From NCBI GenBank assembly GCA_964428615.1, contig CAYRXZ010000002.1:968-64967 (forward strand): 64,000 bases of DNA, given 5' to 3'. Below are positions 4,405 to 52,933 of this stretch, one piece after another. The position numbers and the translations under genes were made by a program. This DNA is from an uncultured Candidatus Saccharibacteria bacterium (lineage in GTDB: Bacteria > Patescibacteriota > Minisyncoccia > UBA6257 > UBA9933). Under the pieces are notes generated by a model. It was not told the DNA's origin and did not search any database. It saw nothing but the letters and a program-made list of their open reading frames with translations. Numbering within the stretch: position 1 is the first letter of the stretch; the number at the start of each line of letters is the position of its first letter.

Positions 4405-4941
4405 ATGTCAGGACACTCTCATTGGGCGGGGATAAAACATAAAAAAGGCGCGGCAGACCAAAAACGCGGTTTGGTTTTTTCAAAACTTTTAAACGCAATT
4501 TCTATCGCCACTAAAACCGAATCTAATCCTCAGTTCAACCCGCGACTAAGAACAGCTATTGAAAAAGCCCAACAAAAAAATGTCCCAAAAGATAATATTG
4601 AACGGGCGGTTAAGCGCGCATCTGAACAAAAAGATTTAGAGGAACTTATCATTGAAGCTTATGGACCAGAAGGCTCAGCTATTTTAATAGAGGCTATAAC
4701 CGATAGTCGCAATCGGACAATTTCAGAGGTTAAAAAGATTTTGAGCGATAATAATGCGAAATTCGGCGAACAAGGAAGTGTGCGTTGGGCTTTTGAAAAT
4801 ATAAATGGTGACGATGGAATTATTTGGCAAATAAAATTTAAACAAGAAATATCTAAAGACGCCAAACAAAAACTTCAAGGATTAATCAAAAAACTTGAAG
4901 AGCGCGACGACATACAAAATATTTATACAAATATAAATTAA
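4405..4941 (+). CDS. yebC: YebC/PmpR-family transcriptional regulator (short form, 178 aa)
   Basis: N-terminus MSGHSHWAGIKHKKGAADQKRG..FSKL is the YebC signature. Classic yebC-ruvC adjacency. About 70 aa shorter than the canonical ~245 aa protein. Confidence 0.8.
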   Translation: MSGHSHWAGIKHKKGAADQKRGLVFSKLLNAISIATKTESNPQFNPRLRTAIEKAQQKNVPKDNIERAVKRASEQKDLEELIIEAYGPEGSAILIEAITDSRNRTISEVKKILSDNNAKFGEQGSVRWAFENINGDDGIIWQIKFKQEISKDAKQKLQGLIKKLEERDDIQNIYTNIN

Positions 4942-4950
4942 AATAATTTT

Positions 4951-5406
4951 ATGATTATTCTTGGTATTGACCCTGGCAGCACAAGGATCGGCTATGGACT
5001 CATAGAAAAATCCGGCGGCAAATTAAAATTTATAAAAGCCGGTTTGTTAAAAATAAAAGCTAAAGATAAATGTGAACGATTGGTTGATTTAGAAAAATCT
5101 TTTTCTGTATTAATTAAAAAAGAAAAACCCGATCAAGTTGTGATGGAAAAACTTTATTTTGTAAAAAATCAAAAAACTGGTCTTGAGGTAGCACAATCTA
5201 GAGGTGTTTTAACTCTTTTAATAACTAAAAATAAAATACCACTTCTTGAATTAACACCACTTGAAATAAAACAGGGTGTGACGGGGTATGGAATGGCAGA
5301 TAAAAAATCTGTTGCTAAGATGGTTGCAAAAATTTTAAAAATAGATAAAATCAACGATTATGATGACGCCACTGACGCATTAGCAGCGGCTATCACTGGA
5401 AGTTAG
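4951..5406 (+). CDS. ruvC: Crossover junction endodeoxyribonuclease RuvC
   Basis: MIILGIDPGSTRIGYGLIE N-terminal RNase-H-fold motif. 151 aa. Located downstream of yebC. Confidence 0.88.
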   Translation: MIILGIDPGSTRIGYGLIEKSGGKLKFIKAGLLKIKAKDKCERLVDLEKSFSVLIKKEKPDQVVMEKLYFVKNQKTGLEVAQSRGVLTLLITKNKIPLLELTPLEIKQGVTGYGMADKKSVAKMVAKILKIDKINDYDDATDALAAAITGS

Positions 5407-5476
5407 ATAAAAAATAAATAATATAATTTTTACACATAACCAAAAAGGTCGTTTGATTATAAAACAATATTTGATC

Positions 5477-5614
5477 ATGGCTATGGATTACGACGAAGAT
5501 TCAAAAACTCCAAAAGAAGATAACGAAGATCTTGACGGTTTCTCTATTGAAGGGGACGATAAAGAAGAGGATGAAAAAGAAGATTTTGAAGACGAAGAAA
5601 AATATCTTGAATGA
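5477..5614 (+). CDS. Candidate 45-aa highly acidic micro-protein (MAMDYDEDSKTPKEDNEDLDGFSIEGDDKEEDEKEDFEDEEKYLE); stop overlaps PBP1A start (ATGA)
   Basis: Manual translation. Not in the ORF track because it is under 60 aa. Overlaps the PBP1A ATG by 4 nt, suggesting translational coupling. No database support is possible here. Confidence 0.3.
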   Translation: MAMDYDEDSKTPKEDNEDLDGFSIEGDDKEEDEKEDFEDEEKYLE

Positions 5615-7713
5615 AAAATAGAAAACGCTTTATATTAAAACTCACAGGCTTATTTATATTGGCCTGTTTGTTATTGGGAGTATGGGGATTAATTAGTATC
5701 GCGAAAATGGCACAAGAACTGCCGAACCCGGGAGAATTTATAGATGGGCAAATTACTCAATCAACTAAAATTTATGATCGTACAGGTGAGGTCTTACTTT
5801 ATGAAATTCATGGAGATGAAAAAAGAACTGTTATTCTTTTTGAAGAAATCCCCGATTATGCCAAAAAGGCAACACTAGCCATAGAAGACCAGAGTTTTTA
5901 TGAACATGCAGCAATGGATATAAAGGGTACTATTAGGGCATTAATCGCCGATATAACATCGGGCGATATGTCCCAAGGGGGGTCAACTATTACACAACAA
6001 CTTGCAAGAAATACATTCTTAACGCCGGAAAAAACAATAAAAAGAAAAATAAAAGAACTTATTTTAGCGAATTGGATAGAAGAAAAATATACTAAAGATA
6101 AAATTTTAGAATTATATCTCAATCAAATTCCCTATGGTACAAACGCTTATGGAATAGAGTCTGCTAGTCAAACATATTTCAATAAACCAGCCAAAAATCT
6201 TTCATTGGCTGAATCAGCGACATTAGCAGCAATGATTCAAGCGCCATCTTATTATTCTCCATGGGGAACTCATGTTGATGAATTAATATCTAGAAAGAAT
6301 TATGTTTTAGACCAAATGTATAATTTGGGTTTTATAGACACACAAGAAAAAGATAGCGCCAAGAAGGTCGAGCTTGTTTTCACTAGTCAAAATATTGGGA
6401 AAATTAAAGCTCCACATTTTGTAATGATGATAAAAGATTATTTAAGCCAGAAATATGGCGAAGACATAGTTGAAAAGGGTGGGTTGAAAGTTATTACTAC
6501 TCTTGATTGGGGCCTTCAACAACTTGCTGAAAAAATAATTGAAACTGGTGCGCAAAGAAACACTGAATTATATCAAGGTAAAAACGCAGCCATGGTAGCG
6601 CAAGACCCTAAAACTGGCCAGATTTTAGTATTAGTAGGATCAAAAGATTATTTTGACAACTCTATTGATGGAAAATTCAATGTTGCAGTTCAAGGGTTAA
6701 GACAACCAGGGTCGTCTTTTAAACCATTTGCATATATTACTGCTTTTGAAAAGGGTTATTCTCCAAACGCTGTAATTTTTGACCTACCAACAGAGTTTTC
6801 TTCATATACTGATATATGTCCGTTAATAAATATAAACTATGACAACAAAAATTCACTTTGTTTTCACCCACAAAACTTTGACGGCGATTTCCGTGGACCG
6901 ATTAATTTAAGAAATAGCCTAGCTCAGTCAGTGAATATATCCTCTGTTAAGGTTCTTTATCTTGCTGGCTTGGTAGATACAATACAAACAGCTCAAAAAT
7001 TTGGATTAAGCACAATAAATGATCCGGCACGTTATGGACTTTCACTTGTTTTGGGTGGCGGCGAAATTAAATTAATTGATATGGTTGGAGCTTATTCTAT
7101 TTTCTCACAAGAGGGAATAAAACATAACCAAGTCATGATATTAGAGGTAAATAATTCAAATGGAGAAATTTTAGAAAAATATATTGATCAAGCGATTAGG
7201 GTAATTGACCAACAATATCCAAAACTTATAAATAATATTCTTTCTGATAATGAAGCTCGGTCTGGATTGTTCCAAGGAAGCTTAGGTTTAACTGTTTTTC
7301 CAGGTAGAGATGTCGCGCTTAAAACAGGAACTACTAATGATTATAAAGATGCGTGGACTATGGGCTACACCCCATCCTTAGTTGTTGGTGTTTGGGCGGG
7401 AAATAGTGATAATACCCCAATGCAAAAACATGCTGGTAGTATTTTAGCAGCTGTCCCAATTTGGAGTGAATTTATAAATACAGCGCTTTTAAATTATCCA
7501 ATGGAATTTTTTAATAAACCCGACGAAATTATTGAGAATAATAAACCAATGATGAATGGAAAATATATTATCAATAATCAAATTCATAATATTTTATATT
7601 ATGTAGATAAAAATAATCCGACCGGACCACAACCTATAAACCCAGAATTAGATTCTCAATATTGGAATTGGGAATTACCAATAAGAAACTGGTGGCAAAA
7701 CCTACCCGGCTAA
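5611..7713 (+). CDS. Class A penicillin-binding protein (PBP1A-type bifunctional transglycosylase/transpeptidase)
   Basis: N-terminal TM anchor. GT51 motifs (EDQSFYEH, GGSTITQQLARN). Transpeptidase SxxK region (GSSFKP), SxN, KTGT. Confidence 0.9.
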   Translation: MKNRKRFILKLTGLFILACLLLGVWGLISIAKMAQELPNPGEFIDGQITQSTKIYDRTGEVLLYEIHGDEKRTVILFEEIPDYAKKATLAIEDQSFYEHAAMDIKGTIRALIADITSGDMSQGGSTITQQLARNTFLTPEKTIKRKIKELILANWIEEKYTKDKILELYLNQIPYGTNAYGIESASQTYFNKPAKNLSLAESATLAAMIQAPSYYSPWGTHVDELISRKNYVLDQMYNLGFIDTQEKDSAKKVELVFTSQNIGKIKAPHFVMMIKDYLSQKYGEDIVEKGGLKVITTLDWGLQQLAEKIIETGAQRNTELYQGKNAAMVAQDPKTGQILVLVGSKDYFDNSIDGKFNVAVQGLRQPGSSFKPFAYITAFEKGYSPNAVIFDLPTEFSSYTDICPLININYDNKNSLCFHPQNFDGDFRGPINLRNSLAQSVNISSVKVLYLAGLVDTIQTAQKFGLSTINDPARYGLSLVLGGGEIKLIDMVGAYSIFSQEGIKHNQVMILEVNNSNGEILEKYIDQAIRVIDQQYPKLINNILSDNEARSGLFQGSLGLTVFPGRDVALKTGTTNDYKDAWTMGYTPSLVVGVWAGNSDNTPMQKHAGSILAAVPIWSEFINTALLNYPMEFFNKPDEIIENNKPMMNGKYIINNQIHNILYYVDKNNPTGPQPINPELDSQYWNWELPIRNWWQNLPG

Positions 7714-7714
7714 A

Positions 7715-8833
7715 TTAATTAGCATTTATAGGCATTAAAATATAAAAACAAGATATATCTGTTGGTGATTTTATTAAAACTGGTTTATTTCCACCATTAA
7801 ATCCAAAAAATATATTATCTGAATTAATAGATTTAATTCCATCTATAATAAATCTCCAATTAAAAATTATTTCAACGCCCGCGCCCTTTATTTTCGCCGG
7901 TATTAAATAATTATTCTCTCCAAGTGATTGATTTGAAGAAAAAACTTTAATATTTTTTGAATTATCTTTTATAGAAATTTTTATCTCATTTAATTTATCC
8001 GTAAAAGAGCTTACTAATTTTAACGCTGAAATTAATTGCTCTTTTTCAAATATAGTTTCAGTTTCAAAAGATTGAGGAATAATTATTTGATAATCAGGAA
8101 ATTCACCACTAATTAAACGTGAAATAATTTCACAATTTTCATTTTTAAATAAAACCTGATTAGAATCAAAATAAATTTTTATTTCCCCATCTTCATTTTT
8201 AAAATTTCTTATTATTTCGTGTATTGTTTTTAAGGGAATTATAATTTTAAAATTATCTTCTATTTCTGTTTTAAATTGGGTATTTATTATTGTTTTTTCA
8301 GCAAGTCTAAAACTATCAGTAACAACAATTTTAAAATAATTATTTTGGAAATCAAAAAGTGCACCACTTAGTTCTGGTTTTATTTCTGAAATTTGACCAG
8401 CTCCAACGACAGACATAAAAGCGTTTTTAATTAAAGATGATGATATTTTAATAAATAAATCATTTTTTATTTGAGGAATTATTGGAAAATCATCTTTTTT
8501 TCCAATATGAATCTTGGCTTGATAATTATCTGTTTTTATAAATAAATAACCACCTTCAGTTTCAAGATTTATTCTTTCACTTTGAATATTATTTATAATT
8601 AAATTAAAAATATTAAATGGAATAGTAAAAATTCCACCTTCAACAACCTTACACGGAATAAATGCCGTAACTGCTATTTCAAGATTTGTGGCTAATAATT
8701 TTATTTTATTATCAATTGTTTCTAATAAAAAATTTTTTAAAACTGGTAAAGCGGCGGAATTATTATCCATTCCAACTTTTCCAATTATATCCAATCCTGT
8801 TTTAAGATTATTTTTTAAAATTATTATTTTCAT
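7715..8833 (-). CDS. dnaN: DNA polymerase III beta sliding clamp DnaN
   Basis: 372 aa, three-domain size. Lies immediately downstream of dnaA in the same orientation. N-terminus MKIIILKNNL.. is clamp-like. Sequence is divergent, so the call rests mostly on synteny and size. Confidence 0.75.
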   Translation of the reverse strand: MKIIILKNNLKTGLDIIGKVGMDNNSAALPVLKNFLLETIDNKIKLLATNLEIAVTAFIPCKVVEGGIFTIPFNIFNLIINNIQSERINLETEGGYLFIKTDNYQAKIHIGKKDDFPIIPQIKNDLFIKISSSLIKNAFMSVVGAGQISEIKPELSGALFDFQNNYFKIVVTDSFRLAEKTIINTQFKTEIEDNFKIIIPLKTIHEIIRNFKNEDGEIKIYFDSNQVLFKNENCEIISRLISGEFPDYQIIIPQSFETETIFEKEQLISALKLVSSFTDKLNEIKISIKDNSKNIKVFSSNQSLGENNYLIPAKIKGAGVEIIFNWRFIIDGIKSINSDNIFFGFNGGNKPVLIKSPTDISCFYILMPINAN

Positions 8834-9012
8834 ATATTTTTATAATAACTCCTATTATAATATATTAATAAATAATAGTAGTAGTTAGTGTGGTTAATTA
8901 TGTTAATTAGTTTTTAATATAATGTATTTATTGATTAAATTTTAAGTTTATTTTTTTATAACAACTTAATTAAAACTTAATTAATAGTGGAAAACTAAAA
9001 ATAATATTTTTA
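8834..9012. promoter_or_regulatory. dnaA-dnaN intergenic AT-rich region with DnaA-box-like motifs (TGTGGTTAA, AGTGGAAAA); candidate DNA-unwinding element and second half of a bipartite oriC
   Basis: About 85-90% AT over 180 bp. 9-mers one or two mismatches from the TGTGGATAA consensus. Repeated cttaatta motifs. Position is analogous to the Bacillus-type oriC between dnaA and dnaN. Confidence 0.4.
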
Positions 9013-10371
9013 TTAATTTTTATAAATATTATCTTTAATTAAAACAATTCTTTGTCCGAGATTTTGATTTTTATTTATTTCTCGAGATATTTTCTCACAC
9101 GCGTATATAGCGGTTGTATGGTCCCTTTTCCCTAATTTATCCCCAATATCATTATAAGACATATTTATTAATTCTCTTAATAAAAAAGCGGCAATTTGTC
9201 TTGGTTCAACAACACTTTTTTTCCTCGACCTATTTATTAAATCAGTTATTGTTATTTCATAAAAATCAGCTACAGCTTTGATAATTTGATTTCCGGTAAT
9301 ATTTTTTGCCGATTGTTGGATTATATTATTTATTATTTCTTCAACGGTTTTTGTGTCTAAATCAATATTTTTTACTTCTTGATAAAATAATATTTTATTA
9401 AGAATACCTTCTAATTCTCTTATATTTCTTTGAATTTTTGTAGAAATAAGAGAACAAACCTCATCTTTAAGTGAAACATTTTTTTCTTGGAGTTTATTTT
9501 TAATAATAGCAAGGCGCATTTCATAATCTGGATAAGTAATATCAACAATCATCCCGCCCTCAAACCGTGATCTAAGGCGCGCTTCAAGTGTTGGGATGGC
9601 CGCTGGGGGCCTATCAGAAGAAAGAATAATTTGTTTATTATTTTCATAAAGAACATTAAATGTATGAAAAAATTCTTCTTCACTTCTTTCTTTTCCACCA
9701 ATAAATTGTATATCATCTATTATTAAAACATCAATATTACGATATTTTTCTTTAATATCATCCATTCTTTTATTTCTTATTGCCCAAACAACATCGTTAA
9801 CAAATTTTTCCGACGGGACATATTTAATTTTAATTTTATTTTTATATTTTTCTTTAATTTCATTACCCATTGCTTGAATAAGATGAGTTTTGCCAAGTCC
9901 GGTCCCACCATAAATAAAAAATGGATTATATTTTTTCCCAACATTTTTAATTATCGCCGTTGTAGCGGCGTAAGCGAGTTCATTAGAAGAACCAACAACA
10001 AAGGAACTCATTGTATATCGTGGGTGAAGATTGGTTTCTAGATCTATTTTAAATTCCGGTAATGATTCTTGGTGAGGAAAATATTTTTTTTCTTCAATTT
10101 TAATTTCAACCCGTCCCTTATTTTCAAAAACAACAATATATTCAACCTTTTTAATAGTGTCGTCAAATTCTCTAAGCGCCTCCAATATTATTTTATTATA
10201 TTTATTTTCAACCCACTCTTTTGCAAAATTATTATTAAAACCAATAATAACCCTCCCATCATCCTCTTTTTTAATAAGACGACTATTTTTAAGCCATGTA
10301 AGAAAATTTGGTCTGGAAATTTGGAGTTCCAATTCAGCTAAAACAGATTGCCATGTTTTATTAAGATCCAT
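9013..10371 (-). CDS. dnaA: Chromosomal replication initiator DnaA
   Basis: AAA+ Walker A GGTGLGKTHLIQAMGNE, Walker B LIIDDIQF, sensor motifs, C-terminal DnaA-box-binding helix-turn-helix (..YNDIGDKLGKRDHTTAIYA..). Confidence 0.95.
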   Translation of the reverse strand: MDLNKTWQSVLAELELQISRPNFLTWLKNSRLIKKEDDGRVIIGFNNNFAKEWVENKYNKIILEALREFDDTIKKVEYIVVFENKGRVEIKIEEKKYFPHQESLPEFKIDLETNLHPRYTMSSFVVGSSNELAYAATTAIIKNVGKKYNPFFIYGGTGLGKTHLIQAMGNEIKEKYKNKIKIKYVPSEKFVNDVVWAIRNKRMDDIKEKYRNIDVLIIDDIQFIGGKERSEEEFFHTFNVLYENNKQIILSSDRPPAAIPTLEARLRSRFEGGMIVDITYPDYEMRLAIIKNKLQEKNVSLKDEVCSLISTKIQRNIRELEGILNKILFYQEVKNIDLDTKTVEEIINNIIQQSAKNITGNQIIKAVADFYEITITDLINRSRKKSVVEPRQIAAFLLRELINMSYNDIGDKLGKRDHTTAIYACEKISREINKNQNLGQRIVLIKDNIYKN

Positions 10372-13052: not shown

Positions 13053-13255
13053 TTTTAGTAATTAAGTAGTAATTAGATAGTAATTAAGTAATTAATTAAG
13101 ATAAATTTTAATTATCAAATTACTCAATTACCTAATTATAAATATTTTATATTCACCACATTATAAATTATTTGCGAAGATTTATCCAATAGCTAAGCTT
13201 CAATAAAATTCAATGAAATTGACAAAATCTTCTAAAAAACATATCTTAAATTCAA

Positions 13256-13738
13256 ATGGATATGTGTTTCAATAATTCAACTGGAATGAAATTAAGCGTT
13301 TCCGATGTGGCGAAGGCCGTTGTTAAATTTATGACAGAAGACGATAGTCGCCGGTATAAAATTTTTATCGGCAGCGATTCCGAGGGCCATGCCGGCGAAA
13401 ATACTGATTTTGTGACGGCGGTCGTGGTTCACAGAGTCGGCAACGGCGGAAGATTTTTTTGGAGAAGAACGGAGTTTAAAAGATTTCATAATTTACATGA
13501 CAGGATAATTCAAGAAGTTTTATTATCAATTGACGCGGCGAAAGAAATTTTAGAAAGTTTGAAAAAAATAAAAGACGTACCGGATTTTGATTTTGAAATT
13601 CACATTGACGTTGGCGAAAAAGGCGAAACAAAAATAATGACCCAAGAAGTTATTGGAATGGTGAGGGCATACAATTTCGAGCCCCGCATAAAGCCGGAAA
13701 GTTGTGCTGCTACAAATGTGGCGGATCGTTATGTTTAG
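13256..13738 (+). CDS. YkuK/DUF458-family RNase-H-fold protein (putative)
   Basis: The KIFIGSDSEGHAGENTDFVTAVVVHRVGNGGRFF pattern resembles the DUF458 family. Recall-based assignment. The true start may be the internal Met (MKLSV..). Confidence 0.45.
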   Translation: MDMCFNNSTGMKLSVSDVAKAVVKFMTEDDSRRYKIFIGSDSEGHAGENTDFVTAVVVHRVGNGGRFFWRRTEFKRFHNLHDRIIQEVLLSIDAAKEILESLKKIKDVPDFDFEIHIDVGEKGETKIMTQEVIGMVRAYNFEPRIKPESCAATNVADRYV

Positions 13739-13778: not shown

Positions 13779-13853
13779 GCTCCTATCGTCTAGTCTGGTC
13801 TAGGACGCCAGGTTTTCATCCTGGTAACTCGGGTTCGAATCCCGATGGGAGCG
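13779..13853 (+). tRNA. tRNA-Glu (anticodon TTC)
   Basis: Manual cloverleaf: acceptor GCTCCTA/TGGGAGC, anticodon stem CCAGG/CCTGG with loop TTTTCAT, T-arm TCGGG-TTCGAAT-CCCGA. CCA is not encoded. Confidence 0.85.
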
Positions 13854-13915
13854 CCGAAGGTGGTATTTAGTATTTACAATTTAAGATACTTCTTATTTGT
13901 GGTGGGGGTTTTTTT

Positions 13916-13949
13916 GCTTAAAGTAAACGCTATAGCGTTTACTTTAAGC
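13916..13949. repeat. Perfect 15-bp-stem palindrome gcttaaagtaaacgc-TATA-gcgtttactttaagc, same CGCTATAGCG centre as the palindrome at 58-95
   Basis: Read directly from the sequence. Preceded by G5T7 (ggtgggggttttttt). Lies between tRNA-Glu and the Mrr-like gene. Confidence 0.5.
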
Positions 13950-14107
13950 AAGGTTTTAAGGAATAAGATAAAGAATAAGTTTACGATAAAAATGATGTTT
14001 TAAATGGTTTGTAGATTATGGTAAAATGGGGTTATGGCGAAAGTTAATGTTTTATTATCCGGCTATACAAATACGGATTCAAAAAAAATTTTAAAACTCG
14101 CGGATTT

Positions 14108-14150
14108 TGTTGTTCCTGGGCATGCGGGGATGTATAAAATTGAGAAATAA
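14108..14150 (+). repeat. 43-bp direct repeat, copy 1 (tgttgttcctGggcatgcggggatgtataaaattgagaaataa); contains promoter-like TTGTTC-17-TATAAA and the 3' end of a 38-aa ORF (14034-14150, MAKVNVLLSGYTNTDSKKILKLADFVVPGHAGMYKIEK)
   Basis: Exact comparison with 14999-15041: 42 of 43 positions identical. Confidence 0.8.
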
Positions 14151-14164
14151 ATTATAATTTTACT

Positions 14165-14995
14165 ATGGCAAGACGAAGATACTACAGAAGAAGAGACGAT
14201 GATTTAGAGCGGGCGCTGGCAGGAATTACCGTTTTTGGGCTAATAGGTCTGTTTTGGTATTTTTATAACAACCCACAAAAATCAATTGCTATATTATTAG
14301 GAGTTGCTGTAATTATCCTAGTTATTTTATTTTTGATAAAACAGTGGCGTAAAAAGCATTTTAATGATTTACTGGGTAAATTAAAAAATTCTGGGCAAGA
14401 AGATAATTTTAAAAACTTTATAAATAGATTTGGTTTAGAAGGTAGGAAGGGAGATGGATATTCTTTTAGAAATCATAAATTTGAGTGGGATAGAATTGAC
14501 GATTTAAAAAAGATATTAAAAGAAAAAGGGATAACTTCAAATAAGAAGGATGTTTTTACTCTGCTTCGATTTTATATTCAAGAAAATGAAGAAAACCTAA
14601 CAAGAGAAAGTATTAAAAAGGAGCCGCAAAAATTTTCTGTTTTATCGGGTACAGAATTTGAAAAGTTATTATATCGTCTTTTTGAAGCGATGGGGTACAA
14701 AACAGAATGGATAGGTAGGTCTGGAGATCAGGGTGGAGATTTAATTGCGAATAAAAACGGAGAAAGAACTTTAGTGCAGGCGAAATGTTATCGAGATTGG
14801 TCTACGGGAAATGCTGCTGTTCAGCAAGTTGTTGGCGCAATGAGATATTATGATTGTAATAATGCGATGGTGGTTACAACTTCTCATTTTACAAACGAGG
14901 CTATTTTATTGGCCAAGGCTAATAAAACAGAGCTTATCTCTAAAGAACGATTACAAGAATTGCTTTTACAGTTTTTGAGCGAAAGTTGGGCTTAA
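14165..14995 (+). CDS. Membrane-anchored restriction-endonuclease-fold protein (two N-terminal TM helices plus C-terminal Mrr_cat / PD-(D/E)xK domain)
   Basis: C-terminal FEKLLYRLFEAMGY..GRSGDQGGDLIA..ERTLVQAKCY..VVTTSHFTNEA matches the Mrr-type restriction endonuclease catalytic domain (Mrr_cat). TM segments ITVFGLIGLFWYF and ILLGVAVIILVILFLI. Confidence 0.7.
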   Translation: MARRRYYRRRDDDLERALAGITVFGLIGLFWYFYNNPQKSIAILLGVAVIILVILFLIKQWRKKHFNDLLGKLKNSGQEDNFKNFINRFGLEGRKGDGYSFRNHKFEWDRIDDLKKILKEKGITSNKKDVFTLLRFYIQENEENLTRESIKKEPQKFSVLSGTEFEKLLYRLFEAMGYKTEWIGRSGDQGGDLIANKNGERTLVQAKCYRDWSTGNAAVQQVVGAMRYYDCNNAMVVTTSHFTNEAILLAKANKTELISKERLQELLLQFLSESWA

Positions 14996-14998
14996 AAA

Positions 14999-15041
14999 TG
15001 TTGTTCCTAGGCATGCGGGGATGTATAAAATTGAGAAATAA
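14999..15041 (+). repeat. 43-bp direct repeat, copy 2 (tgttgttcctAggcatgcggggatgtataaaattgagaaataa), 3 nt after the Mrr-like stop and 133 nt upstream of lysS
   Basis: One mismatch to copy 1. Carries the same promoter-like hexamers. Confidence 0.8.
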
Positions 15042-15174
15042 TAGGAAATAAGTGCTGCGAATAAAAAACTTTAATTTAATCACAATTGAGCGCAATAACA
15101 CCTTAGCGCTATATTAAAACGCATTTGGTTGTTAGGTGAGTACGTTTTTTATTTTTGTGATATAATTATTTCAA

Positions 15175-16626
15175 ATGAGCGAGGAAATTAAAATAAAACT
15201 TGAAAAGCTTGAGAATTTGAAGAAGGCGGGAATGGACCTGTATCCTGAGAAAACCGATAGAACGATTTCTAATGCCGAGGCGCTGGAGAAATTTGAAGCC
15301 TTAAAAGAATCACAAAAAGAGGTTGTTTTAGCCGGTAGGCTTAAATCTTTTCGTTTGATGGGTGGAGCGGCCTTTGGACACATTGAAGATGGTTCGGCGA
15401 AAATGCAGATTTTTTTGCGGAAAGAAAATTTAACAGAAGGGAAATATGAACTTTTCGTGAATAATATTGAGATGGGCGATTTTGTAGAAGCGAAAGGAAT
15501 TCTTTTTTTGACGAAGAAAGAAGAAAAAACTTTAGAAGTCCGCGATTGGAAAATTCTTTCAAAAAACATCCGCCCGATTCCGACGGAATATTTTGGCTTG
15601 AAAGACGAAGAAGAAATTTTACGGAAAAGATATTTGGATTTGGCGCTTAACCCGGACAGCCGCGATTTATTCAAAAAGAAAAACGTTTTTTGGCAGACAA
15701 TAAGGAATTATTTGGCGGGTGCCGGATTTTTAGAAGTGCAGACTCCGGTGCTTGAGCACATTCCGGGCGGAGCAGATGCCGAACCGTTTATCACTCATCA
15801 CAACGCTTTAGACCAGGATTTTTACCTCCGCATTTCCTTGGAGCTTTCACTTAAACGGCTTTTAGTGGGAGGATTTGAAAAAGTTTTTGAAATCGGCAGG
15901 GTTTTTAGGAACGAGGGAATGGATAGAGAACACCTTCAGGAATTTGAGTATACGGAATTTTATTGGGCGTATTCGGATATGAAAAAGGGAATGGAATTCG
16001 TGGAAAAATTTTTTAAGGAAATTGTTTTGAAGGTTGTCGGAAAATACGAAACAGAATACGAAGGAAAAAAAATAAATTGGGATATTGATTTTCCTTGCGT
16101 GGATTATTTTGAAGAATTTAAAAAAGAAGCGGGTATTGATTTAAATAAAGAAATTAAAATTTCGGAATTGAAAAAAAAATTGGATGAATTGGGAGTGAAA
16201 TATGAAAAAAGTTGGGGCAAGGGCAGATTAATAGATGCGATTTATAAAAGAACAGTGCGGCAAAAACTTATTCAACCGTGCTTTTTAACCGGGCACCCAA
16301 TTGAGATTTCACCACTGGCGAAAGCTGACCCGGAAAATCCGAAAAAAGTTTTACGTTTCCAATTGGTTGCCGGAAAGTCCGAGCTTGGCAACGGGTTCGC
16401 GGAACTTAACGACCCGATAGACCAGAAAAACAGGTTTATGGAGCAGATGAAAGCACGCGAAGCCGGGGATAAAGAAGCGCAAATGATGGATGAAGATTTT
16501 GTGGAGGCGCTTGAATATGGAATGCCGCCGGCGCTTGGCTTTGGAATGAGCGAAAGATTTTTTGCTTTTATAATGAATAAATCAGTGAGAGAAACGACAA
16601 TTTTTCCGCCGGTGAGGAATAAATAA
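15175..16626 (+). CDS. lysS: Lysyl-tRNA synthetase, class II
   Basis: N-terminal OB anticodon-binding domain. Class II motifs (..FRNEG.., GGADAEPF, ..GFGMSERF..). 483 aa. Confidence 0.93.
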   Translation: MSEEIKIKLEKLENLKKAGMDLYPEKTDRTISNAEALEKFEALKESQKEVVLAGRLKSFRLMGGAAFGHIEDGSAKMQIFLRKENLTEGKYELFVNNIEMGDFVEAKGILFLTKKEEKTLEVRDWKILSKNIRPIPTEYFGLKDEEEILRKRYLDLALNPDSRDLFKKKNVFWQTIRNYLAGAGFLEVQTPVLEHIPGGADAEPFITHHNALDQDFYLRISLELSLKRLLVGGFEKVFEIGRVFRNEGMDREHLQEFEYTEFYWAYSDMKKGMEFVEKFFKEIVLKVVGKYETEYEGKKINWDIDFPCVDYFEEFKKEAGIDLNKEIKISELKKKLDELGVKYEKSWGKGRLIDAIYKRTVRQKLIQPCFLTGHPIEISPLAKADPENPKKVLRFQLVAGKSELGNGFAELNDPIDQKNRFMEQMKAREAGDKEAQMMDEDFVEALEYGMPPALGFGMSERFFAFIMNKSVRETTIFPPVRNK

Positions 16627-51522: not shown

Positions 51523-51900
51523 TTGTCTATAAGATTAACTCATGCGAAATCAAAGACAGTTAAAGATCTAGATATCCCAAACAATTATTTTGCAGATTTT
51601 TTAAGGGGCTGCATTGACGGAGATGGTTCTATTGGCGCGTTTAAGCATCCCGAAAGTAAACATCCTCAATTGCGAATAAGATTATATTCCGCAAGCGTAC
51701 CATTTTTACAATGGATTAAGAAAGAAGTTTTGTATAATACAAAAATAAAAACCGGCTGGATTGAAGAAAAAGAAGGTATTAATGTATTAGCTTATGCAAA
51801 AGAGGACTCTATTAAATTATTAAATTTTGTTTATTATAAAAACGTTGAATATTATTTAAAACGTAAATATAATATTGCGAAAGCATTTTTGCGGGTATAG
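51523..51900 (+). CDS. Free-standing single-motif LAGLIDADG-family homing-endonuclease-like protein (TTG start; 3' end overlaps tRNA-Leu by ~10 nt)
   Basis: FADFLRGCIDGDGSIGAF matches the LAGLIDADG signature at an I-CreI-like position. 125 aa, so short. Confidence 0.6.
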   Translation: MSIRLTHAKSKTVKDLDIPNNYFADFLRGCIDGDGSIGAFKHPESKHPQLRIRLYSASVPFLQWIKKEVLYNTKIKTGWIEEKEGINVLAYAKEDSIKLLNFVYYKNVEYYLKRKYNIAKAFLRV

Positions 51901-51972
51901 CCAAATTGGTAAAGGCGCATGGCTTAGAACCATGTGAGGAAACTCTTGGAGGTTCGAGTCCTCCTACCCGCA
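51891..51972 (+). tRNA. tRNA-Leu (anticodon TAG), type II with long variable arm
   Basis: Acceptor GCGGGTA/TACCCGC. Anticodon stem CATGG/CCATG with loop CTTAGAA. Variable arm tgaggaaactcttggag. T-arm GGTTCGAGTCC. Confidence 0.8.
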
Positions 51973-51976
51973 CAAT

Positions 51977-52933
51977 CTATTTTCTTCTTCTGCCGTGGAA
52001 AGTCTGATGGATTTCGCGGAGTTCTTTGTTTGTTAAATGAGTATAGATTTGAGTTGTGGAGACATTGGCATGGCCTAATAATTCTTGCACCGAACGCAAA
52101 TCCGCTCCGCCGATGAGTAAATCGGTGGCGAAAAGATGGCGAATAGTATGCGGATGTACTTTCTGCGGGATGCCGGCCTTTCTGGAATAAAAATCAACAA
52201 TTCTTTGAATGGTGCGGGGGAGTATTCTTCCGATTATTTTTGGGTTATCCGCTTTTGTTAAACTTATAAACAAAGCTTCTTCGGCATCGCCGCGTTTTTC
52301 CAAATAATTTTTAATTGCAGTTTTTGCGCGTTCGGAAAGAAAAACTATTCTTAGTTTTCCGCCTTTGCCGCGAATACTAATTTCTCCACGTTTTAAATCC
52401 AAATGTCGATTAAGCGCGCAAAGTTCGGAAATACGGAGACCGGTTGAAAACAGCATTTCTAAAATAGCTTTATCACGGAGAGAACGCAAGTCAGAACCTT
52501 TAGGCGCGGCAAGCAGTCTTTCTAGGTCGGCATATTCAATGATTTCAATCTGTCGGGTGGGAATTTTGGGCAGCTCTATTTTGTCCGGAGACATCACTTC
52601 AATATCGCGTTTGTTTATGTATTTCAGAAAATTTCTAATGGCAATGACATAATAACTTTGGGTAATTTTTTTTATATTTCTTCTTGCTAGAAAAAGCCGG
52701 AATTCGCGAATAATATCCGGTGTAATACTTTTTTCGGTTTTTATTTTCCCGAATCCCAAAAATGCTTTTAAATAGCGATCGTAATTTTCACGAGTTTTAA
52801 TTGAGCGGTTTTTTTCTATTTCCAGATAATTTAGGTAGTCATTAAGAAGCTTTTTTATATCTGCCATATTATTGTTGATTTTACCATTTTTAGTGGTATA
52901 ATTAAATGAAAGCTGAAAATGTTTATTGTTCAA
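51977..52933 (-). CDS. Tyrosine recombinase, XerC/XerD family (3' end 5 nt from the tRNA-Leu 3' end)
   Basis: Catalytic region ..GLRISELCALN.., HPHTIRHLFATDLL..G.DLR.VQELLGHANVSTTQIYTHL. The likely true start is the internal MADIKKLL.. (core-binding domain). Confidence 0.85.
   Translation of the reverse strand: MNNKHFQLSFNYTTKNGKINNNMADIKKLLNDYLNYLEIEKNRSIKTRENYDRYLKAFLGFGKIKTEKSITPDIIREFRLFLARRNIKKITQSYYVIAIRNFLKYINKRDIEVMSPDKIELPKIPTRQIEIIEYADLERLLAAPKGSDLRSLRDKAILEMLFSTGLRISELCALNRHLDLKRGEISIRGKGGKLRIVFLSERAKTAIKNYLEKRGDAEEALFISLTKADNPKIIGRILPRTIQRIVDFYSRKAGIPQKVHPHTIRHLFATDLLIGGADLRSVQELLGHANVSTTQIYTHLTNKELREIHQTFHGRRRK

Follow-up and report, generated by a model that had tools for sequence, protein, structure and literature searches.

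A predicted membrane-anchored Mrr-family nuclease gene between duplicated gene ends in a defense-gene hotspot of a Candidate Phyla Radiation bacterium

The DNA analyzed here (the window) is a 64-kb stretch of contig CAYRXZ010000002.1 from the genome of an uncultured bacterium that LysS relatives place among Moranbacteria-like members of the Candidate Phyla Radiation (CPR). Our subject is a gene for a Mrr-family nuclease that lies between tRNA-Glu and lysS, the two landmarks of a defense-gene hotspot, and is bracketed by two nearly identical direct repeats. A first-pass annotation had interpreted this arrangement as an insertion or duplication event that placed a nuclease gene between tRNA-Glu and lysS and duplicated a promoter and a gene end. 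CPR bacteria (Patescibacteria) have tiny genomes with few recognized mobile elements and are thought to rely mainly on restriction-type defenses. The features of the locus are listed below; L numbers denote the loci and contigs used for comparison, ORF stands for open reading frame, and MBL stands for metallo-beta-lactamase.

13779..13855, + strand: tRNA-Glu, anticodon TTC (ARAGORN; Rfam tRNA, 60 bits), the conserved left landmark of the hotspot
13914..13951, no strand: perfect palindrome of 19+19 nt without a loop (repeat finding), between tRNA-Glu and the old MBL promoter
13999..14027, + strand: promoter-like site of the former MBL gene, TTTAAA-17-TG-n-TAAAAT (9/12 in a consensus scan, plus an extended -10)
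14034..14150, + strand: 38-aa ORF, the apparent remnant of a gene for an MBL-fold hydrolase (DNA alignment and tblastn against L003)
14108..14150, + strand: direct repeat copy 1, the native 3' end of the MBL gene, VVPGHAGMYKIEK and stop
14153..14158, + strand: TATAAT box (read from the sequence)
14165..14995, + strand: gene for the Mrr-family nuclease, predicted to be membrane anchored, 276 aa (Pfam Mrr_cat, hydropathy, AlphaFold2 [AF2])
14999..15041, + strand: direct repeat copy 2, a displaced noncoding duplicate of the MBL 3' end
15042..15174, + strand: spacer from copy 2 to lysS, with a TG-n-TATAAT extended -10 at 15158-15166
15175..16626, + strand: lysS, class II lysyl-tRNA synthetase (Pfam; 62 related loci), the conserved right landmark

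As first described, the two repeat copies are identical at 42 of 43 positions, the sole difference being G/A at 14118/15009, and they flank exactly one ORF, which starts 14 nt past copy 1 and ends 3 nt before copy 2. A search of the window at up to three mismatches returned these two copies only, and none was found in 100 shuffles. Copy 1 consists of the last 13 codons and the stop codon of the 38-aa ORF. The base difference in copy 2 changes a conserved Gly codon from GGG to AGG; this codon is GGN in every other copy, in any genome, and the change is what would be expected of a noncoding duplicate. Rfam identified nothing beyond the tRNA between 13600 and 15300.

The locus is base-identical in contigs from four different samples. 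The 38-aa ORF occurs in all four, with three contigs running on into a gene at the Mrr position (verified as base-identical in L001 and L101) and the fourth stopping at the repeat. Contig L001, an independent assembly that is identical to the window over 4,206 nt, spans both copies, and the junction between copy 1 and the Mrr gene is present in two further samples. The identity across four samples, together with the spanning L001 contig, therefore argues that the repeat arrangement is not a misassembly. One metagenome contig (L099/L085) ends 24 nt past copy 1, as assemblers tend to do at repeats, but an assembly or chimera artifact deserves next to no credence given these independent contigs and given that the arrays described below for L072/L002 agree between two assemblies.

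The 38-aa ORF had been taken for a small upstream gene. While copy 1 does supply its end, comparison with L003, whose LysS is 87% identical to that of the window, suggests that the ORF is instead what is left of a larger gene. L003 carries, at 273-848, an intact gene for a 191-aa Lactamase_B (MBL-fold) protein that starts MAKVKVLLEGYTSADS and ends KVLKLADFIVPGHAGMYKAKTKQK; the window ORF reads MAKVNVLLSGYTNTDS-KKILKLADFVVPGHAGMYKIEK. Window positions 14032-14080 align with L003 271-319 (84%) and positions 14083-14137 with L003 772-826 (93%), so that MBL homology runs left of copy 1 to about 14084, and tblastn with the L003 protein confirmed the two-part match. In the 38-aa ORF, MBL codons 1 to 16 (14034-14081) are joined in frame to the last ~22 codons (14082-14150). 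Since both parts match the L003 gene, the ORF corresponds to an MBL gene from which ~450 nt (150 codons) were removed in frame, together with every metal-binding motif, and it is best read as a pseudogene remnant of a gene for a 186- to 191-aa MBL-fold hydrolase. More than 1,200 MBL homologs of 180 to 200 aa were found. The body of the gene has been lost at least two times in the clade, through a window-type and an L084-type deletion. A shared right-hand deletion junction was considered as proof of a discrete element but is a weak argument, because the junctions of L079 and L072 can be derived from that of L084 and only two independent deletions remain.

Promoter candidates can be read at several points of the locus. 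The motif that had been proposed as a promoter within the repeat, TTGTTC-17-TATAAA, is indeed present in both copies but fails a sigma-70 consensus scan, which returned 7 sites in the region versus 6.1 expected by chance. From the sequence, we infer that the old MBL promoter (13999-14027) and the TATAAT box upstream of the Mrr ATG would be better candidates, and the former could drive both the remnant ORF and the Mrr gene. The palindrome at 13914-13951 lies 60 nt past tRNA-Glu and probably serves as a terminator or operator; in L088, it is likewise conserved ahead of the intact MBL gene. At the other end of the locus, the spacer at 15042-15174 has no counterpart in relatives (blastn against all loci), where ddl (D-Ala-D-Ala ligase) overlaps lysS.

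These observations bear on a plain local duplication without any mobile DNA: with the Mrr gene in place beforehand, loss of ddl would have been followed by the copying of 43 nt, promoter included, to a downstream position from which they drive lysS. Such an event would account for the motif in both copies; lysS is translationally coupled to ddl in relatives, so that loss of ddl would create a need for a new promoter, and a Mrr homolog is present in the same hotspot in L025. However, besides failing the consensus scan, the motif has a -10 that reads TATAGG in several L072 copies, and lysS has its own TG-n-TATAAT. Moreover, unrelated cargo lies between copies of this duplication in L072, and Mrr itself lies between copies of another one in L091 (see below), which fits insertion. 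We consider such a plain duplication very unlikely. Of the first-pass interpretation, the promoter reading of the repeat is weak; insertion with duplication of a gene end is supported.

The nuclease gene encodes a protein with two N-terminal hydrophobic helices and a C-terminal Mrr_cat domain (PF04471; 1.4e-28, 99.7 bits against a cut-off of 21), which spans aa 160 to 267 and profile positions 4 to 115 of 115. The catalytic residues that were to be checked are intact: E166, D192, and Q205-x-K207 are invariant in 25 homologs of 53 to 75% identity. The Q takes the place of the D/E found in Mrr proper. The protein has the restriction endonuclease-like alpha/beta fold of Mrr-family nucleases, and its nuclease domain had structural matches to AF1548, AspBHI, and MspJI. 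The domain order is a basic N-terminal tail, a first transmembrane helix (TM1; ~aa 17 to 33), a second (TM2; aa 40 to 58), a middle domain (~aa 66 to 156), and the Mrr_cat core. TM2 is strongly hydrophobic (Kyte-Doolittle mean, 3.4); TM1 is weaker, at ~1.7 by hand and below the threshold of 1.5 in 19-residue windows. In the AF2 model (mean confidence [pLDDT], 80), helices 9-35 and 37-75 form a hairpin, with a small middle domain of alpha/beta type and then the nuclease core behind it. There are seven basic residues ahead of TM1 and six beyond TM2, with a short, neutral loop in between; this positive-inside pattern predicts a cytoplasmic location for both termini and for the nuclease.

An exhaustive search with the middle domain (aa 66 to 156) returned 49 clusters at 50% identity, most of them of 270 to 295 aa, along with two long repetitive proteins and a few shorter sequences that are probably incomplete; a word-indexed search had returned one partial match only. 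The middle domain thus appears to be private to the architecture of two TM helices plus Mrr_cat, and the protein can be assigned, on its sequence, to a small CPR-centered family with that domain order. On the nuclease domain, PADLOC gave matches to the PDC-S02, type IV restriction endonuclease, and ZorD models. No match was found to a Mrr_N winged helix in Pfam at E values up to 0.1, to any NCBIfam model, or to any Protein Data Bank (PDB) sequence when the whole protein was searched. A cognate methyltransferase, which had been suggested as something to look for, was not found in the window by tblastn with three DNA methyltransferases from relatives' islands, domain scans having covered part of the window's ORFs; for a Mrr-type enzyme, none is expected.

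These features suggest a two-helix hairpin that would tether the nuclease at the inner face of the membrane, with the middle and Mrr-type domains in the cytoplasm. The protein might then act as a stand-alone defense nuclease that cuts invading DNA, either modified DNA, as type IV enzymes do, or DNA met at the membrane on entry, and the tether may hold it away from the chromosome. A different role is conceivable, namely a housekeeping or DNA uptake enzyme that processes imported DNA for nucleotide salvage, much like the membrane nucleases EndA and NucA in competent species. CPR bacteria rely on the import of nucleotides. The family is conserved at full length (52 to 75% identity) in many CPR lineages, its members are predicted to be membrane anchored, and no relative was found in viral contigs, all of which would suit such a role. 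Its distribution is patchy, however, and its variable contexts are dominated by restriction-modification (R-M) and abortive-infection genes; the gene is absent at the syntenic position in close relatives, the charges predict a cytoplasmic rather than an extracellular nuclease domain, and the PADLOC matches are to defense models. We therefore find an uptake function quite unlikely. The earlier reading of the gene as an accessory, defense-type nuclease gene inserted between tRNA-Glu and lysS is supported; the hotspot context and the mobility of the homologs are described next.

The interval from tRNA-Glu and the small MBL gene to (DUF5676, ddl) lysS is a hotspot of defense-gene gain and loss in this lineage. 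The upstream order 5'-3' exonuclease, RNaseH_like gene, tRNA-Glu is kept in L072, L079, and L084, where the same tRNA-Glu also lies upstream of the MBL-end unit. The downstream order in relatives is DUF5676, (Nudix), ddl, lysS, with ddl, DUF5676, and Nudix preceding lysS in the relatives whose islands were examined (L002, L003, L084, and L088), and the content before these genes differs in every lineage:

L003: MBL, 119-aa ORF, GmrSD-HNH, Dcm, Vsr, then DUF5676, Nudix, ddl, lysS
L088: MBL, Shedu (SduA_C), 164-aa ORF, then DUF5676, ddl
L072/L002: NTase-like (nucleotidyltransferase-like), NYN, HNH, and further genes
L084, L079: LexA-methyltransferase and HNH
L025: PIN, Mrr homolog (75% identity), Fic

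MBL genes in more distant lineages are followed by AbiEii, Fic, type I R-M, GIY-YIG, and PDDEXK genes. In the window genome, Mrr is the sole gene in the hotspot, from which ddl, DUF5676, and Nudix are missing; no ddl was detected elsewhere in the 64 kb either. The Mrr gene is absent from the syntenic position in the close relatives L003 and L002. The empty state that had been predicted for relatives (tRNA-Glu, one repeat copy, lysS) was not seen among them; they hold other defense genes plus DUF5676 and ddl.

Two gene types recur at or near this interval. The RNaseH_like gene (PF04308, YkuK type; 13256-13738) adjoins tRNA-Glu upstream, at the start of the hotspot. It is kept in L072 and L084, and its 3' end is also present in L079; no link to recombination was found. 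A fusion of a LexA-type DNA-binding domain and S24 peptidase to an N6/N4 DNA methyltransferase occurs in L084 (2749-4584), L079 (41-1462), and L102 (8941-10503), and in L079 it adjoins an HNH nuclease gene.

Full-length homologs of the nuclease (275 to 290 aa) are found across CPR lineages in unrelated neighborhoods, which are rich in R-M, AIPR, PDDEXK_3, and Fic genes or lie beside tRNA genes or a large serine recombinase gene. In L098, the Mrr homolog is ~7 kb from a large serine recombinase gene and an HTH_17 gene (1-686 and 8001-8828) and may belong to an integrated element. The 18 nt before the Mrr ATG match those of the L091 homolog (74% identity) at 17 of 18 positions, with TATAAT 6 nt from the ATG, and other homologs have TGnTAAAAT at the same distance. 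This upstream identity suggests that the cassette carries its own promoter and that its mRNA may be leaderless. The homology with L091 overlaps the end of copy 1 by 4 nt (ATAA), a junction microhomology.

L091 is an unrelated CPR genome in which the Mrr homolog lies between different direct repeats of 25 nt (7943-7967 and 8826-8850; 21/25 identity) with a 12-nt exact core that occurs only twice in 16.8 kb. The left copy is inside the 3' end of an upstream 231-aa ORF, and the right copy overlaps the Mrr stop codon. The repeat spacing is 883 nt, compared to 891 nt in the window.

The MBL-end unit was located in several relatives by a metagenome pattern search and an nhmmer profile. Viral contigs gave only chance matches to the repeat pattern. 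Contig L072 (Ga0163200_1001603), the upstream continuation of the L002 genome, contains an array (4832-8238) downstream of tRNA-Glu in which four MBL-end units, three of ~67 nt and one of 38 nt, separate single-gene cassettes:

5491-5556: unit 1, then the NTase-like gene
6322-6388: unit 2, then the NYN gene
7138-7205: unit 3, then the HNH gene and a 74-aa ORF
8201-8238: unit 4, a short copy of 38 nt

All unit copies finish at the MBL stop codon (TAA, TAG, or TGA), and three of the four cargoes start 13 to 17 nt past it (the NYN gene starts 168 nt past). The short copies in the window and L072 begin no more than 5 nt apart, despite different cargo. Unit identity is 82 to 98% within a genome versus 70 to 82% between genomes, which indicates that it is the resident site that gets duplicated; the duplicated sequence belongs to the site and not to the cargo.

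The best explanation of these data, to which we assign a probability of roughly 60%, is that a compact one-gene cassette for a membrane-tethered defense nuclease was inserted by a site-duplicating event. The MBL gene of the window genome would have decayed to a 38-codon in-frame remnant, and a cassette of ~850 bp (a TATAAT box, a probably leaderless Mrr ORF, and almost nothing else) would have inserted right after the MBL stop codon. Insertion would have duplicated the resident site, so that the cassette is now flanked on either side by the final 43 nt of the MBL gene, with copy 1 keeping the reading frame and stop and copy 2 persisting as a drifting relic.

The repeats might otherwise be the eroded leftovers of a long duplication. 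Homologous recombination with a circular or linear donor that carried Mrr beside the whole or a large part of an MBL gene would give the order MBL, Mrr, MBL; deletions would then have removed internal sequence from the first copy and all but the final 43 nt of the second, a boundary set by the limit of erosion and not by a recombination site, in a genome assumed to have a strong deletion bias. A RecA gene is present among the ten window ORFs scanned, the clade shows at least two different, independent MBL deletions (the window type and the L084/L079 type), large deletions have happened at the locus, as the loss of ddl, DUF5676, and Nudix indicates, and genomes with an intact MBL gene are without the duplication. 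Yet the 42/43 identity implies a recent duplication, after which several precise deletions ending at ORF boundaries would still have been needed. Erosion also sits poorly with short copies that begin so close together in two genomes with different cargo and with the start of three of the four cargoes 13 to 17 nt past the stop codon, and no intermediate with two long MBL copies was seen in any locus fetched. We regard this scenario, the main rival, as unlikely, though it keeps some weight.

Several routes could lead to a site-duplicating insertion of the cassette. A site-specific recombinase might act in trans at a defined site, a small circle with a short stretch of homology might integrate by a RecA-driven single crossover (Campbell type), or replication might switch templates at a microhomology and resume behind the point where it left. 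Recurrent use of the identical insertion point favors a defined site, while homology- or microhomology-driven events are favored by the variation in repeat length and by the finding of the same cargo within a different repeat. We favor a circular cassette recombining at the MBL 3' end.

A number of findings weigh against insertion of a mobile defense cassette. No recombinase was found in or beside the cassette or the array, and the scan of ten window ORFs gave a single tyrosine recombinase, Xer-like, at a distance of 37 kb (51977-52933, - strand). No circular form or empty site was seen, and beside intact MBL genes a second copy of the MBL 3' end was absent (0 of 8 loci). Two genomes carry the same cargo between different repeats, and the repeats are of unequal length (25, 38, 43, and ~67 nt); both observations argue against a single fixed att core or a fixed staggered cut. 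The composition of the Mrr gene is not foreign (z score of -0.7 for GC content at third codon positions [GC3]). As for function, the hydrophobicity of TM1 is only moderate, and phage defense, topology, and nuclease activity are predictions from sequence for every member of the family. In the hotspot loci fetched, a small sample of ~10 lineages, no integrase was found.

Three candidate recombination sites were considered and rejected. The tRNA gene, whose neighborhood had been called typical of acquired DNA, is not the integration site: no fragment of tRNA-Glu is repeated downstream in the window, L072, L084, or L079, and the duplicated piece is the MBL 3' end. The units fold no better than shuffles on either strand (z scores of -1.7 to +1.1), unlike an attC-like hairpin, and by inspection the repeat has no palindromic arms of the kind found in a 28-bp dif-like site with inverted arms. 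Separately, the Xer-like gene ends 3 nt from tRNA-Leu(TAG) (51891-51973).

It is possible, if doubtful, that CPR bacteria of this clade stockpile single-gene defense cassettes in an integron-like manner, integrase independent or with the integrase in trans, by duplicating the 3' end of the preceding gene. Such insertions would build arrays like the four units of L072, and leaderless nuclease cassettes would hop between gene ends across genomes. Repeat lengths of 25 to 75 nt and junction overlaps of 3 to 4 nt would then point to a template-switch or short-homology route, which would be new for gene-cassette mobility.

The locus shows defense-gene turnover at a fixed address in tiny genomes. Should site-duplicating insertion turn out to be regular, it would account for the capture of single genes by streamlined bacteria poor in integrases; otherwise, the locus is a tidy case of island accretion and gene decay, in which the small ORF and the promoter should not be annotated as such. 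The compact nuclease family may act at the cell envelope, and with 276 aa the protein is easy to test.

Some features elsewhere in the window also stand out. The dnaN gene (7715-8833, - strand) has a GC content of 22.8% and a GC3 of 9%, compared to a window mean GC3 of 30%, and the adjacent ORF (9013-10371, - strand; 452 aa) has a GC3 of 17%. Between the 5'-3' exonuclease and RNaseH_like genes, an 11-nt unit, TAGTAATTAAG, is repeated ~4 times in tandem (13056-13099).

Among known systems, the protein appears to resemble Epona most closely in architecture. Epona is a single-gene cassette of the Vibrio cholerae superintegron that combines Mrr_cat with a holin-like domain of two TM helices and is active against phages in Escherichia coli (bioRxiv 10.1101/2024.07.02.601686). 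Judged by its description, Epona shares with the window protein two N-terminal TM helices (predicted here) and Mrr_cat in a single gene, as well as a compact single-gene cassette between repeats, in an array rich in defense genes. The window protein differs in having an extra conserved middle domain of ~90 aa, and its repeats are not attC sites and have no integron integrase nearby. E. coli Mrr, MspJI, and AspBHI (type IV/IIM) have the same PD-(D/E)xK Mrr-type catalytic domain with a D...QxK signature, but the window protein lacks a Mrr_N winged helix or an SRA-like DNA-reading domain; its N terminus consists of a membrane hairpin and an uncharacterized domain instead. The PADLOC candidate PDC-S02, whose models match the C-terminal nuclease domain at 1e-14 to 3e-6, is itself uncharacterized, and the match is limited to aa 141 to 270.

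SNIPE, a membrane-bound nuclease of E. coli, cuts phage DNA as it is being injected, and its tether protects against self-cleavage (Nature 2026, PMC13190303). Its layout is comparable: a membrane anchor at the N terminus, then a middle domain, then a cytoplasmic nuclease at the C terminus. However, SNIPE has a GIY-YIG nuclease, DUF4041, and a single TM helix, and neither domain was found in the window protein with Pfam. SNIPE is a functional analog and not a homolog; like SNIPE, the window family may act at the cell envelope.

With respect to genetic architecture, the nearest described case is that of cis-mobilizable elements (CIMEs) and ICESt1-type elements, which undergo tandem accretion at the 3' end of protein genes (reviewed in PMC5704250). 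In both, DNA without an integrase lies between direct repeats taken from the target gene's 3' end, the left one of which restores the end of the gene, and repeated insertion at one site builds tandem arrays (compare L072). In contrast to CIMEs, the window-type elements are single genes of 0.8 to 1.0 kb in which no integration or transfer gene remains; no integrase-bearing relative was found at the MBL-end site, and the same cargo occurs with a different repeat elsewhere.

Integron arrays and clusters of attC sites lacking integrases (CALINs) come next. The cassettes between repeats are compact and have single ORFs: the order is unit, NTase-like, unit, NYN, unit, HNH plus 74-aa ORF, unit in L072 and unit, Mrr, unit in the window. 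As in integron arrays, they are co-oriented and promoter poor, with repeats of 40 to 70 nt that start a few nt from the stop codon, and defense genes are enriched (L072). Unlike attC sites, the MBL-end units have no hairpin potential and, by inspection, neither R''/R' cores nor a RYYYAAC/GTTRRRY pair; they derive from coding sequence and are near-identical within a genome. There is also no IntI, the genes upstream being tRNA-Glu, the RNaseH_like gene, and the 5'-3' exonuclease gene. The arrangement shows more order than a random repeat would, but most of it is a modest extension of known themes, namely defense-island hotspots, gene-end duplication on insertion, and membrane-anchored Mrr-type nucleases; what is new is a CPR-specific protein family with a private middle domain and an integrase-less cassette pattern that duplicates gene ends.

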